Source: Acidimicrobiia bacterium
GTDB lineage: Bacteria; Actinomycetota; Acidimicrobiia; Spongiisociales; ZC4RG35
Assembly (NCBI GenBank): GCA_965209025.1
Contig: OZ242375.1
Location: forward strand, 2,261,380 to 2,325,379
Length of the DNA: 64,000 nt
Direction of reading: 5' to 3'
The notes beneath the pieces were generated by a model. The model did no database searches, was not told where the DNA came from, and worked only from the letters and a program-made list of their open reading frames with translations. Shown here one piece after another: positions 32,124 through 52,275 of this stretch (within the stretch, counting starts at the first letter, position 1; the number at the start of each line of letters is the position of its first letter). Made by a program: the position numbers and the translations under genes.

Positions 32124-32280
32124 CTTCCACCGTCATTATGGGAACCCCGTCCCGGTTTATCAAGTAGGAGGCGCCACATTCGGAGCAGCGAAGCGACCGT
32201 TCGGCGTCGACCGGGAGCACTTCTCCCCGGCAATGAGGGCAGGCCAGGATGGACAGGAGGTCAGGGTCGATCAAGGCCAT
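32116..32280 (-). CDS. Trm112 family (UPF0434/DUF343) small zinc-ribbon protein, 54 aa
   Basis: Absent from the ORF track (too short). My own translation is MALIDPDLLSILACPHCRGEVLPVDAERSLRCSECGASYLINRDGVPIMTVEDD. It has CPxC...CxxC and the characteristic RDG(I/V)P(I/V)M ending. Its TGA overlaps the start of the downstream isomerase (ATGACTGA). Confidence 0.8.
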   Translation of the reverse strand: MALIDPDLLSILACPHCRGEVLPVDAERSLRCSECGASYLINRDGVPIMTVEDD

Positions 32281-48045: not shown

Positions 48046-48179
48046 AGTGTAATCTCCTTAACATTAGGTATACACCCTTTTTATTCAGTAAAACCAAAAA
48101 GGAACTGATGACATCCCTCGCTTGGGGATTACGGGGTTGAACCCTCGATTGTGGCCAGGTACGCTTATGCCCTGAGATC

Positions 48180-48764
48180 ATGAGCCGGTTGTCCCCTCAA
48201 ACCGCGTTGGTGGTGGTGGATGTTCAGAACGACTTCGCCGACCCGGAAGGGTCCCTCTATGTCAGCGGGGCCGGGAAGGTGGTGGAAGCGGTGAACAGGC
48301 TGGTGGAGAAGGCGCAGGAAGAGGGGTGGCCGGTGTTCTACACACAGGACTGGCATCCGGAGACCACCCCCCACTTCGCCAAGGACGGGGGGATATGGCC
48401 GGTGCACTGCGTGGGCGGGTCCCGGGGAGCGGACTTCCATCCCGACCTGGTGGTCGAGGGTGTTTCGGTGAAGAAGGGCGGCGCCGGGGAGGACGGCTAC
48501 TCGGGGTTCACCATGCGGGACCTGGTGGAAGCCGAGGATCGCCCGACCGCCCTGCATTCCCTTCTGCAGGAAAGGAACATCGCCAGGGTGGTGGTGGTGG
48601 GGCTGGCTCTCGACTACTGCGTGAAGGACACCGCTCTGGACGCCGTTCGTCTTGGATATGAAGTGGAGGTGCCCCTGGACGCCACCGCCGCGGTCAACCT
48701 CTCCCCTGACGACGGGGATAAATCGATCGCTGCTCTGCAGGCAGCGGGGGTCTCAGTTAGCTGA
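48180..48764 (+). CDS. pncA: Nicotinamidase/pyrazinamidase (isochorismatase family)
   Basis: VVVDVQNDF, QDWHP, VHCV, and VVVVGLALDYCVKDTALDA (catalytic Cys). Confidence 0.85.
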   Translation: MSRLSPQTALVVVDVQNDFADPEGSLYVSGAGKVVEAVNRLVEKAQEEGWPVFYTQDWHPETTPHFAKDGGIWPVHCVGGSRGADFHPDLVVEGVSVKKGGAGEDGYSGFTMRDLVEAEDRPTALHSLLQERNIARVVVVGLALDYCVKDTALDAVRLGYEVEVPLDATAAVNLSPDDGDKSIAALQAAGVSVS

Positions 48765-50343
48765 GACCTGCAAAACGACGGGCCAGTAGGCGGCGGTAAG
48801 TGCTCCAGAGAGGGTTCTCGGTGGGCCGCAGCGTGGGGAACAGGATCACGTCACGGATGTGGCTCCGGCCGGTCAACAGCATCACCAGCCTGTCCACGCC
48901 CAGACCCAGTCCCCCTGTCGGGGGCATCCCGTATGCCAGAGCCAGGACGAATTCCTCATCCACCGGGTGAAGTTCGGGGTCATCCGCTCCAAGAAGGGAA
49001 GCCTGGTTCTCGAATCGTGACAACTGGTCCACCGGGTCGTTCAGCTCGGAGAACGCGTTGGCGAATTCCACTCCGGCAATGAACAACTCGAAACGCTCGG
49101 TGAGACGGGGTTCCCGCCGGTGGCGACGGGCGAGAGGGGAGACTTCCAGGGGATAGTCGACCACGAACGTGGGTTCCCACAGCCCTGGGGCGGAAAGACG
49201 GTCGAACAGTTCGTAGACGATCCGGCCGGCGCCCCACTCCTCCCGGGTCTCGACTCCCCGGCCTGCCGCCATCTCACCCAGGATGCGCGGTTCGGTGTCG
49301 AGGGTGACCTCCTCTCCCATCTCCCCGCTCACCAGGTCAAGCATCGAGATCTTGCGGAAGGGAGGTTCGAGGGAGAGGGGCCTGGACGGTTCGTCGGCGG
49401 CCTCCCGGCCGACCAGGGTGGCGCCGGTCGCTGCCCTGGCCACGGCGGGGATCACCTCTTCGACCAGGTCCATAACGTCCCGGTAGTCGGCGAACGCCTG
49501 ATATGACTCCAGCATGGTGAACTCGGGATTGTGGGAGGAGTCCACTCCCTCGTTGCGGAAGATACGCCCGACCTCGAATACCCGCTCGAACCCCCCGACA
49601 ACGAGACGCTTCAAGTACAGTTCGGTGGCGATCCGCATGTAAAGCTCTATGTCCAAGGCGTTGTGGTGGGTCCGGAAAGGACGGGCGGCAGCGCCCGCCG
49701 CCCGGGAGGTGAGAATGGGAGTGTCCACTTCCAAGAAGCCTCGCTGGTGGAACTGGTTGCGGAGTTCCGCCACCACCGCGGACCGGATCTCGAAGGTCTG
49801 CCGGCTGTCGGGGTTGACCACCAGGTCCAGGTGACGGTGCCGGGAGCGCTGCTCGACATCCCTCAGACCCTTCCACTTCTCGGGGAGCGGGGCAAGGCAC
49901 TTGGCCAGAAGCGTCAGTTGTTCCACACCGATGGAGAGTTCCCCCCGGCGGGTGGTGATCACCTCTCCGGTGGCGCCCACCCAATCACCCAGATCCAGAT
50001 GGGGCAGCAGTTCGGCGGACTCGGCCGCAAGGTGGTCGCCGGAGATAAAGAGTTGGAGGTCGCCGGTTTGATCGGAAAGGGTGATGAACACCAGCCGTCC
50101 AAAGTCGCGGACCAGTCGGACCCGTCCTGCAACCGCCGCCGTCCGTCCGGTCCTGGCGTCAGCTTCGAGATGTCCGTAAGACTCCCGGATCTCCCGGGTC
50201 GAGTGGGTCCGTTCGAACCTTGCGGGCCATACGTCCACGTCCCGCGCCGACAGGTCTTCCAGGTCTCCGAGGCGTTTCCGTACCACCTTCTCCCACAGGC
50301 CCGCCGACCCAGGATCCGGCTGTGTGGTGCCTTCATTGTCCAT
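48757..50343 (-). CDS. lysS: Lysine--tRNA ligase (class II)
   Basis: 528 aa. OB-fold N-domain (GRVRLVRDFGRLVFITLSDQTGDLQLF). Class II motifs FRNEG (motif 2 region) and GGLGLGVDRLVMLL (motif 3). Confidence 0.9.
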   Translation of the reverse strand: MDNEGTTQPDPGSAGLWEKVVRKRLGDLEDLSARDVDVWPARFERTHSTREIRESYGHLEADARTGRTAAVAGRVRLVRDFGRLVFITLSDQTGDLQLFISGDHLAAESAELLPHLDLGDWVGATGEVITTRRGELSIGVEQLTLLAKCLAPLPEKWKGLRDVEQRSRHRHLDLVVNPDSRQTFEIRSAVVAELRNQFHQRGFLEVDTPILTSRAAGAAARPFRTHHNALDIELYMRIATELYLKRLVVGGFERVFEVGRIFRNEGVDSSHNPEFTMLESYQAFADYRDVMDLVEEVIPAVARAATGATLVGREAADEPSRPLSLEPPFRKISMLDLVSGEMGEEVTLDTEPRILGEMAAGRGVETREEWGAGRIVYELFDRLSAPGLWEPTFVVDYPLEVSPLARRHRREPRLTERFELFIAGVEFANAFSELNDPVDQLSRFENQASLLGADDPELHPVDEEFVLALAYGMPPTGGLGLGVDRLVMLLTGRSHIRDVILFPTLRPTENPLWSTYRRLLARRFAGLS

Positions 50344-50404
50344 TGAGCATCAACCTAGTAGACGATTACCTGAAGAATGAAAGCATGAGAGTCGCGCCCC
50401 ATAC

Positions 50405-50550
50405 GAAAGTAACCGACCCGCCCCCGGGAGGGGAGGGAGGGCGGGCCGGTTGAGTGCCTGCCGCCCCGGGAGGGGTGGAGGGCGGGCAGGCTTCCCGCCG
50501 GTCTTCCGGGAGGGGACGGGGAAGGCCGGCAGGTGGTTTGGTTTGTGGGT
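50405..50550 (-). ncRNA. Candidate structured RNA: three tandem GC-rich hairpins with C-rich loops (6C-like sRNA or lysS 5' leader)
   Basis: Plus-strand hairpin coordinates are 50494..50533, 50457..50490 and 50417..50445. Each loop carries CCCCUCCCGG on the minus-sense RNA (plus-strand CCGGGAGGGG at 50506..50515, 50466..50475 and 50424..50433). The hairpins lie directly downstream of a near-consensus promoter. The ends are estimated. Confidence 0.5.
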
Positions 50551-50553
50551 GAA

Positions 50554-50582
50554 ATAATAGACGGTATCGGGAGGTATGTCAA
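50554..50582 (-). promoter_or_regulatory. Near-consensus sigma-70-type promoter (TTGACA-17 nt-TATTAT)
   Basis: The minus-strand sequence is TTGACA (50582..50577), the spacer TACCTCCCGATACCGTC (17 nt), then TATTAT (50559..50554). It starts 11 nt after the coaX TAA stop. Confidence 0.6.
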
Positions 50583-50593
50583 CTGGAGGGGAA

Positions 50594-51361
50594 TTAAGAA
50601 TTCAGCTCGAGCACGAGCAACAATCCTCCCAGGGTGAGGTCGTCTTCTATGTCCGTGATCGTCTCACAGACCGGCCCCAGCAGCCTCGCCAGGCCCCCGG
50701 TCGCCACCACCGGCAGAGCCCCGAGCCTGTTTTCGGCGCAGATCCGCCTTACCAGGCCGTCCACCAGACCGGCCCATCCGAACACCAGTCCGCTCTGAAC
50801 GGCTTCGGTGGTGTTGCGCCCGGTGGCCCGGTTGGGCCGGGTCAGTTCCACTCTCCGGAGCGCGGAGGCCGCAGCGGCCAGGGCGTCTCCGGCCACCTGT
50901 ATCCCGGGAGCGATGGCTCCTCCGCAGTAGGAGCCCGAGGCGTCGATCACATCCACGGTGGTGGCTGTTCCGAAGTCGACCACCAGTACGGGGGCGCCGT
51001 ACAACTCCACCGCCCCGATGGCGTTGGCCACCCGGTCGGCGCCGACCTCCCGGGGGTTGTCGATGCGGATCTCCATGCCGGTGCGGGTCCCGGGCCCCAC
51101 CACCACCAGGGGCCCGTTCACCATCTCGGTGAGCACCGGGCGTATGGCGGGTACGGCGGTGGGCACGACGCTGGACAGCGCCGCTCCATCCAGGGGTTGG
51201 GGGATGCCGGAGAGAAGCCCGGAGAGGAGGATGCGGTACTCGTCGGTGGTGCGGGAAGTCTCGGTCGAGATGCGCCAGCGGTGTTCCAAGGATCGGCCGC
51301 GGTAAGCCCCGATCACGGTCTGGGTGTTGCCGATGTCCACTGCTAAACGCATGCCCTTCAC
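50594..51361 (-). CDS. coaX: Type III pantothenate kinase
   Basis: MRLAVDIGNTQTVIG, VVDFGTATTVD and GGLA blocks. The start may be the ATG at 51352 (MRLAVD). Confidence 0.85.
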   Translation of the reverse strand: MKGMRLAVDIGNTQTVIGAYRGRSLEHRWRISTETSRTTDEYRILLSGLLSGIPQPLDGAALSSVVPTAVPAIRPVLTEMVNGPLVVVGPGTRTGMEIRIDNPREVGADRVANAIGAVELYGAPVLVVDFGTATTVDVIDASGSYCGGAIAPGIQVAGDALAAAASALRRVELTRPNRATGRNTTEAVQSGLVFGWAGLVDGLVRRICAENRLGALPVVATGGLARLLGPVCETITDIEDDLTLGGLLLVLELNS

Positions 51362-52275
51362 CTATACAGGAGACTAGGGCTTTCCAGGACGATTCCCCGA
51401 TCGACGGCCAGATGGCCGCCGCTGGTGTCGAAAAAGAGATTGTCGATCAGCCTCACCTTTCCCACCGAGGCGGCCGCCGCCAGGAAGGAAGGGCGGTCGA
51501 GGGTGTCGAGCAGGGATGCGTCGTCCTGGTCGGCCAGTTCTACGTATTCCCATGCCACGCGGTCTCTGGATGCGGTCACTTCACGGCAAAGGCCTTCGGC
51601 CGAACGTTCTCCGCCTTCGGCGGCCAGGGCAGCGGCCCACAGCCCCCGGCTTATGTCCAGGGCGGCTTCCCGTTCCTGGGCGGACATCAAGATGTTCCGG
51701 CTGGACAGCGCCAGCCCGTCGCTCTCCCGGATGGTCGGGCAGCCGACAATCTCGATCGGGAACCGGAGATCCCGCGCCATCCTGCGGATCATGGCCAATT
51801 GCTGGGCGTCCTTGCGCCCGAAATAGGCCCTCTGTGCTCCCAGGCCGGCCAGGAGTTTGGTCACCACCAGGGCCACCCCCTCGAAGTGACCGGGCCGTCT
51901 CGGGCCTTCCATGGCCCGGGCCACCCGGCCCGGCTGGATGGACGTGGACTCGTCGGGTTCGTACATCTCCGAGGTCGACGGAGCGAACAGGATGTCCACG
52001 CCCGCCTCGGCAGCCAACTGAGAGTCCCGCTCGAAACTCCGGGGATAGCGGTCGAAGTCCGAAGACACGTTGAATTGTCGTGGATTGACGTACAGGGACA
52101 TCGTCACGACCCTGCATTCCCGGCGTGCCCGCGAGATCAAGGACAGGTGACCCTCGTGAAGGAACCCCATGGTGGGCACCAACCCGATCGGCGCCGGGCC
52201 CTCCTGGCCGCCGGATCGGTGGTACGCCTCCGTGGCTGCGGACCGCGCCTCGGAGAAGGTCGAGACGATCCTCAT
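51358..52275 (-). CDS. panC: Pantoate--beta-alanine ligase
   Basis: PTMGFLHEGHLSL (HIGH-like), FGRKDAQQ, and SSRN. Confidence 0.9.
   Translation of the reverse strand: MRIVSTFSEARSAATEAYHRSGGQEGPAPIGLVPTMGFLHEGHLSLISRARRECRVVTMSLYVNPRQFNVSSDFDRYPRSFERDSQLAAEAGVDILFAPSTSEMYEPDESTSIQPGRVARAMEGPRRPGHFEGVALVVTKLLAGLGAQRAYFGRKDAQQLAMIRRMARDLRFPIEIVGCPTIRESDGLALSSRNILMSAQEREAALDISRGLWAAALAAEGGERSAEGLCREVTASRDRVAWEYVELADQDDASLLDTLDRPSFLAAAASVGKVRLIDNLFFDTSGGHLAVDRGIVLESPSLLYR

Follow-up and report, generated by a model that had tools for sequence, protein, structure and literature searches.

A 64,000-nt stretch (64 kb, GC content 64.4%; hereafter the window) from contig OZ242375.1 of an uncultured Acidimicrobiia bacterium contains an apparent small regulatory RNA gene, not described before, in the 250 nt that separate coaX from lysS. 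The element is read on the minus strand, which is the sense strand of coaX and lysS. It consists of a near-consensus promoter directly downstream of coaX and three adjacent GC-rich hairpins, which present the same octamer, CCCCUCCC, in their loops (Table 1). The element is best read as a new family, restricted to one clade, of anti-Shine-Dalgarno-like C-rich-loop small RNA (sRNA) that is absent from Rfam 15. By analogy with characterized RNAs, we lean towards a stand-alone, trans-acting sRNA of ~140–175 nt, with its own promoter and with loops that would pair with G-rich ribosome-binding sites. The original prediction, made for this locus from the letters of the window, described a structured, promoter-driven RNA that has C-rich loops and is functionally akin to the actinobacterial 6C RNA. 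This general description is borne out: the element is non-coding and its promoter is conserved.

CoaX homologues assign the window to Acidimicrobiia, and the closest genomes are labelled Acidimicrobiia, phylum Actinomycetota. A genome scan yields 17 loci in metagenome-assembled genomes (MAGs) labelled Acidimicrobiia, with CoaX 81–99% identical, and look-ups of exact proteins add four loci. The isolate names RHO, SB0665, and Plut suggest sponge or coral metagenomes. As the original prediction had proposed, the coaX–lysS regions of the relatives were aligned; the alignment comprises 17 distinct sequences, the window included, from 20 complete orthologous loci. Every complete locus (20/20) keeps the element, with its three CCCCTCCC motifs in an unchanged position after coaX, and partial copies are found at contig ends in L006 and L012. 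Across the 20 complete loci, a covariance model (R1) built from 13 sequences scores 131.9–151.2 bits. In ~260 kb of flanks from the related loci its matches amount to one copy per locus, and a search of the 64-kb window with filters off likewise gives a single copy.

Relative to the window, hairpins 1–3 (the RNA core) are 91–100% identical in all relatives. The corresponding values are 76–98% for coaX (last 600 nt) and 73–95% for lysS (first 900 nt), the two genes falling to 73–85%. In the more distant relatives the spacer is 37–67% identical, with the segment between the −10 box and hairpin 1 falling to 37% and the segment after hairpin 3 to 45%.

The three hairpins fold as originally claimed. 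When the minus-strand RNA is folded, the minimum-free-energy (MFE) and centroid structures agree on them, with z = −5.3 relative to shuffles for the 148-nt RNA and z = −4.0 for a 207-nt stretch. The helices are 12–15 bp long and are connected by linkers of 2 and 4 nt. The coordinates given before are corrected here; in particular, hairpin 3 (50451–50411) is longer than the predicted 50417–50445. The loops read CCGUCCCCUCCC, UCCACCCCUCCC, and UCCCUCCCCUCCC, and the longest run of C in a loop is four, in agreement with the predicted C4-U-C3 loop and with three rather than two hairpins. The decamer CCCCTCCCGG, said to be exposed in every loop, does occur three times in the element, spaced 40 and 42 nt; only the octamer is exposed in all three loops, the trailing GG being paired in the stem. 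Likewise, the UCGGU taken for part of the 3′ tail belongs to the stem of hairpin 3, and the actual tail is UACUUUCG. The hairpins are mutually alike (14–15-nt direct repeats, 86–93% identical), which suggests that they arose by internal duplication. Two further copies of the decamer in the window (8893 and 21908) are located within coding sequence and have no hairpins.

All 39 base pairs are formed in 17/17 sequences (663/663 cells), compared with 34–58% in slid controls. Nine pairs (ten counting one extra loop pair) vary on one side only, among C-G, U-G, and U-A. In hairpin 1, 7/13 pairs vary in this one-sided manner and all cells are still paired; in hairpin 2, the 17 sequences agree in all 12 pairs and in the loop and differ only at the bulged base. 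Each stem substitution is a wobble-compatible transition on the minus strand. G-U pairs account for 71/663 cells and would be A-C mismatches on the opposite strand, which fits the strand specificity of R1 (146.5 bits on the minus strand; at most ~14 bits elsewhere). The loop conservation looked for in relatives is present.

A 75-aa open reading frame (ORF) that covers the element (50355..50582, minus strand) is rejected as a gene. One-nucleotide indels shift its frame in relatives, stops interrupt it in L008, L013, and L017, and it has no Pfam match. It was rightly regarded from the start as a by-product of the repeats.

The promoter is confirmed from sequence as predicted: TTGACA, a 17-nt spacer, and TATTAT, 11 nt past the coaX stop. 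It is the sole 11/12 match to the sigma-70-type pattern TTGACA-N16-18-TATAAT in the 64-kb window and also the sole promoter-like hit in 46–56 kb. An 11/12 site arose in ~3% of composition-matched simulations. In the relatives, the −10 box reads TATTAT, TATCAT, or TACCAT (TAYYAT); the spacing is the same, except for 18 nt in L013 and L017. Because of the position of the −10 box, which lies 20 nt from hairpin 1, transcription would start at ~50547. The 5′ segment that follows varies in sequence among relatives (37–100% identical).

Two observations concern promoter-like sequences other than this one. The second-best site in the window is TTGATA-17-CATAAT (10/12; 32135–32163, minus strand). Four relatives (L003, L020, L019, and L016) have a ~27-nt insertion ~25–30 nt after the −10 box, apparently a tandem copy of the −10 region (GGATACTGTCTAACATT versus GATACCGTCTATTATT). 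The insertion yields a second −10-like box (TAACAT or TACTAT) with no matching −35 box, and the RNA has a longer 5′ end.

Hairpin 3 is probably the intrinsic terminator of the sRNA, judging from its tail, which is U-rich and imperfect in each relative (e.g., UACUUUC, UUUUUUC, UCCUUUU, or ACCUUUA). A weak fourth hairpin with a U/C-rich tail is possibly a second or alternative terminator. Most relatives have a further small hairpin of unrelated sequence there (−6 to −15 kcal/mol), followed by a UCUUUCUUCU-like tail. The feature is not uniform: as a common terminator, the fourth hairpin holds only in part, being weak and variable among relatives. The predicted 3′ end is at ~50403 or ~50375, corresponding to an RNA of ~145 or ~175 nt.

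The next-closest Acidimicrobiia (CoaX 56–62% identical) keep the order panC-coaX-lysS, with coaX and lysS ~35 nt apart or overlapping by 4 nt, and their coaX–lysS junctions contain no hairpins or such element. Since these outgroups have the three genes without the spacer, the RNA, as judged from the junction sequences, is an insertion specific to one clade of Acidimicrobiia. More distant CoaX loci (L022–L054; at most 58% identity) have no adjacent lysS and are unusable as outgroups. The outgroups with a 35-nt spacer share CGTCCARAGT ~10 nt before the lysS ATG, where the relatives of the window have another box.

At gathering scores, Rfam finds zero families in the whole 64 kb, and no riboswitches, rRNA, or other known RNAs. 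Under permissive settings, three families match, each a C-rich-loop sRNA and each below threshold. They are 6C (RF01066; 24.7 bits, E = 0.43, gathering score 47), which covers hairpins 2 and 3 only; ar14 (RF02344; 23.9 bits in the window and 22.3–31.5 in relatives, gathering score 58.8), which covers all three hairpins; and CcsR1 (RF02791; 18.0 bits in the window and 21.3–25.1 in relatives, gathering score 65.3), which covers hairpins 2 and 3. In eight relatives, the matches do not include 6C. No Rfam model other than ar14 extends over all three hairpins, and in most relatives ar14 is the top match.

The original prediction suggested a divergent or expanded member of 6C, and proposed a search with the 6C model and all of Rfam. 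The scores above and the features of the element do not support such membership. 6C has two hairpins, at least six consecutive C per loop, and covarying stems, and is usually located near partitioning or pilus genes (PMC1950547). The element has three hairpins in the MFE, centroid, and consensus folds, at most four consecutive C in a loop, and no two-sided stem changes. Its neighbours are a DUF2520 gene, panC, coaX, and lysS, in place of chromosome-partitioning or pilus-assembly genes at 200–300 nt. Unlike 6C, it is restricted to one clade of Acidimicrobiia, and its stems are near-invariant rather than covarying. The likeness is in the general design. 6C (B11 in mycobacteria, cgb_03605 in Corynebacterium glutamicum) likewise occurs in Actinomycetota (Actinobacteria), and is, like the proposed RNA, a stand-alone sRNA with a strong housekeeping-type promoter, GC-rich hairpins, C-rich loops, and a last hairpin that is the probable terminator; its model aligns to hairpins 2 and 3 of the element. 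In C. glutamicum, 6C is transcribed from a strong SigA/SigB promoter and is very stable (PMC5014011).

The cuckoo RNAs of Alphaproteobacteria consist of 2–4 adjacent hairpins with an anti-Shine-Dalgarno-like loop motif, CCUCCUCCC, have variable stems, and occur in several copies per genome; the three-hairpin form is the commonest variant (PMC4615179). The element has the cuckoo architecture, defined as 2–4 adjacent hairpins with helices of 6 bp or more and linkers no longer than 10 nt (PMC4615179). As in ar14/SmelC397/NfeR1 and CcsR1-4/RSs0680, the hairpins are modular, the linkers are short, and the loops carry the same anti-Shine-Dalgarno-like type of C/U motif. The motif CCUCCUCCC itself is absent from the loops; CCCCUCCC shares with it the core CCUCC(C). 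In contrast to the cuckoo RNAs, which are multi-copy and reside in varied ‘nests’, the element belongs to another phylum, occupies a fixed locus, is single-copy per locus or window in our data, and has near-invariant stems. CcsR is co-transcribed with a DUF1127 gene, and no DUF1127 gene is present at this locus. Given the phylogenetic distance, the likeness to ar14 is most likely convergence. In Firmicutes, RsaE/RoxS and the UCCC-motif Rsa RNAs also use unpaired C-rich loop motifs to pair with G-rich Shine-Dalgarno regions; they give no Rfam signal in the window and have no sequence or structural similarity to the element. In every visible respect the RNA would work as these families do, yet it is a member of neither 6C nor cuckoo, and a remote relation to 6C with an added hairpin may exist.

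The proposed mechanism follows the characterized members of these groups. In Mycobacterium tuberculosis and M. smegmatis, 6C represses panD, dnaB, and other genes by chaperone-free pairing of its C-rich loops with G-rich ribosome-binding sites, for which five or more G-C pairs suffice (PMC6486639). The housekeeping sigma factor would transcribe the RNA from the near-consensus promoter just after coaX, starting at ~50547, and transcription would end at the U-rich tail of hairpin 3 (~50403) or at the weak fourth hairpin (~50375). The three stable, adjacent hairpins would each present unpaired CCCCUCCC, which contains the anti-Shine-Dalgarno core CCUCC and is complementary to GGGAGGGG. By analogy with 6C and with ar14/NfeR1/CcsR, the loops would then most likely pair in trans with the GGGAGGGG or GGAGG ribosome-binding sites of several mRNAs. 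Translation initiation would be blocked, and a chaperone would not be needed because G-C pairing is strong; the RNA, proposed to be abundant and stable, could engage up to three sites at once.

Several points weigh against a stand-alone RNA that acts by loop pairing. When the regions upstream of long ORFs in the window are scanned for GGGAGGGG-like sites, many 7/8 matches appear at ambiguous starts, the sole perfect GGGAGGGGG site is located inside the coding region of S-adenosylhomocysteine hydrolase, and no convincing target is found in the window. The compensatory stem changes sought by the original prediction are absent: none of the pairs changes on both sides in the 17 sequences, and the shuffle control gives no significance (135/500). 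Strict covariation is therefore absent, and what supports the structure is thermodynamics, one-sided wobble changes, and conservation. The stems are conserved as much as the loops, beyond the need of simple loop pairing, and this invariance might reflect binding to a protein or a tertiary structure. The transcription start and the 3′ end are both predicted from sequence, and hairpin 3 is followed by a tail of only moderate U content, so that transcription may read through into lysS. In addition, the copy number refers to the window and the related flanks.

The original prediction left undecided whether the RNA is a stand-alone sRNA or the 5′ leader of lysS. In the case of a leader or cis-regulatory attenuator, lysS would be transcribed from the strong promoter, and its read-through or translation would be under the control of the hairpins, the fourth perhaps serving as a terminator. 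The RNA does share its strand with lysS and directly precedes this gene, which lacks a Shine-Dalgarno sequence; a terminator-like hairpin is positioned between the two, and the U tail of hairpin 3 is imperfect. Sequence comparison nevertheless largely resolves the question in favour of a stand-alone sRNA gene separable from lysS, through one variant locus and the region next to the lysS start. In L018 (CAYWGY010000116.1), a 484-aa DUF222/HNH endonuclease gene on the opposite strand, of a type often mobile in actinobacteria, separates the RNA from lysS by ~1.7 kb. There, coaX is still followed directly by the promoter and the three hairpins, and the TAGGTTGA box has stayed at the lysS ATG, RNA and box both being perfectly kept. 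This box is preceded by TG in 12/17 sequences and matches the actinobacterial −10 pattern TANNNT. Together with the missing Shine-Dalgarno sequence, it leads us to infer a separate lysS promoter, of which TAGGTTGA would be the −10 element, and a leaderless or near-leaderless lysS mRNA; no −35 element is recognizable for such a promoter, a point for the leader. The distance between hairpin 3 and lysS is freely variable (48–78 nt, with 45–67% identity in the more distant relatives), the outgroups express lysS without such a leader, and no T-box or lysine-riboswitch signal is found with Rfam. We consider the leader improbable. The L018 separation, the TAGGTTGA box staying with lysS, and the terminator-like ends argue for the stand-alone sRNA gene, which also shows the general features of a trans-acting sRNA: a conserved promoter of its own, terminator-like hairpins, and an unconserved ORF.

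If the RNA is a separate transcript, its loops could instead bind an RNA-binding protein (e.g., a KH-type poly(C) binder) or ribosomal components, and the RNA would act as a decoy by titration. The stems and the bases that flank the loops vary no more than the loops themselves, hairpin 2 is 100% identical in its pairs and loop in the 17 genomes, and this constraint exceeds the usual need of a base-pairing seed; three evenly spaced, near-identical modules also suit a protein. No candidate partner gene is linked to the locus, however, and the characterized RNAs of the same architecture act by base pairing (PMC6486639, PMC4615179), and we regard a protein-binding RNA as unlikely, though it is the main competitor. 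A terminator or insulator array for the panC-coaX operon is quite improbable. Stable GC-rich hairpins do follow the coaX stop directly, the last with a U-rich tail, but an invariant near-consensus promoter is located between the stop and the hairpins, the outgroups need no such array, and the three identical invariant loops and the 91–100% core identity would be left unexplained. There is very little to commend an element that works as DNA, either as direct repeats bound by a DNA-binding protein or through G-quadruplexes of the G-rich plus strand (GGGAGGGGAGGGAGGGCGGG etc.) that affect local transcription or replication. The plus-strand runs fit the G3+N1-7 pattern in each unit and the repeats are spaced about four helical turns, whereas only on the minus strand do the stem substitutions obey the wobble rules of RNA, the covariance model is strand-specific, and promoter and terminator-like features frame the element in the right orientation. 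A dispersed REP- or MITE-like palindromic repeat is the least credible: although the units are tandem palindromes, the hairpins resemble duplicates of one unit, and the spacer is an insertion relative to the outgroups, the element has its own conserved promoter and the same position in every relative. The original prediction named dispersal as an argument against a locus-specific RNA; R1 detects the element once in the 64-kb window and once at each related locus.

More speculatively, a trivalent anti-Shine-Dalgarno-mimic RNA might have been invented independently, by hairpin triplication, in uncultured marine Acidimicrobiia, convergent with cuckoo; its insertion would have split an ancestral coaX-lysS operon and left lysS with a leaderless promoter. 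We hold this scenario to be possible but doubtful. The extreme constraint on stems and loops, which exceeds that on the adjacent essential genes, could reflect a global Shine-Dalgarno sponge or a rigid scaffold for a C-loop-binding protein.

Almost nothing has been charted of the regulatory RNAs of Acidimicrobiia, a class represented here by uncultured MAGs only. If the proposed sRNA is real, it would provide a clearly defined and very strongly conserved sRNA family for this class. Multi-hairpin anti-Shine-Dalgarno-like C-rich-loop RNAs would then have arisen in a third lineage, besides 6C and cuckoo, which would strengthen chaperone-independent G-C pairing with ribosome-binding sites as a general solution in GC-rich bacteria. 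The mechanism itself would be expected by specialists. The covariance model, the 17-sequence alignment, and the L018 variant make the hypothesis testable with existing metatranscriptomes and heterologous reporters.

Table 1 Features of the coaX–lysS spacer and its neighbours (window positions, except for the L018 gene).
Feature	Position	Strand	Remarks
panC	51358-52275	-	neighbour upstream of coaX
coaX, type III pantothenate kinase	50594..51361	-	upstream neighbour; NCBIfam and TIGR00671 matches; stop TAA at 50596-50594
−35 box TTGACA	50577..50582	-	11 nt after coaX stop; invariant in 17/17 aligned sequences, adjoining bases variable
−10 box TATTAT	50554..50559	-	17-nt spacer from −35 box
5′ segment with predicted transcription start	50534..50547	-	short, CA-rich; unpaired in MFE and centroid; start ~50547, +/-2
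Conserved RNA core, covariance-model match	50403..50538	-	R1 146.5 bits; next best in window 14.4 bits, filters off
Hairpin 1	50494..50533	-	13 bp and 1x1 internal loop (C-A mismatch); loop CCGUCCCCUCCC; octamer 50515-50508
Hairpin 2	50456..50491	-	12 bp and one bulged base; loop contains CCACCCCUCCC; octamer 50475-50468
Hairpin 3	50411..50451	-	14-15 bp; 11-nt loop containing CCCUCCCCUCC; octamer 50433-50426
Fourth hairpin, weak	50373..50404	-	U/C-rich tail (GUAUGGGGCGCGACUCUCAUGC UUUCAUUCUU); flagged terminator-like (50404-50383)
TAGGTTGA box (TAGGTT within)	50350..50357	-	invariant, 17/17 sequences (same box in L001-L021); 8-10 nt upstream of lysS ATG (8 in window)
lysS, lysine--tRNA ligase	48757..50343	-	downstream neighbour; NCBIfam NF001756, 626.8 bits; ATG at 50343
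DUF222 + HNH endonuclease gene of L018	1847-3301	-	called ORF overlaps lysS start region by a few nt

The context of DUF2520 gene, panC, coaX, and lysS is identical in all relatives. Directly 3′ of lysS, the window has a 130-aa ORF (48165–48557, minus strand) with no match in Pfam or NCBIfam. In L001–L004 the gene at this place is of the isochorismatase family and on the opposite strand, unlike the window, and thus the region 3′ of lysS varies among close relatives.

On the 2.6-Mb contig CBDCBK010000010.1, panC-coaX-RNA-lysS occurs twice in opposite orientation, with identical RNA (L008, 945711–951475; L015, 4805–10569). This doubling is a large inverted duplication or an assembly artefact at the contig end.

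On the plus strand at 50411–50533, the complement of each hairpin consists of G-tracts (e.g., GGGAGGGGAGGGAGGGCGGG) that fit the usual G-quadruplex pattern, a property of possible relevance to the DNA template or to an antisense transcript, if any.

A metagenome scan for three CCCCTCCCG motifs with 26–42-nt gaps lists at least 167 matches, among which none is blastn-similar to the RNA. Among those listed, 144 are tandem-repeat arrays and 23 are degenerate repeats or palindromes with the motif paired. CCCCTCCCG thus recurs in many unrelated environmental tandem-repeat arrays with a period of ~35–55 nt (L055–L174). These arrays, which are unrelated to the RNA, often pair CCCCTCCCG with GGGAGGGG in long palindromic repeats (e.g., L061, L088, and L157).

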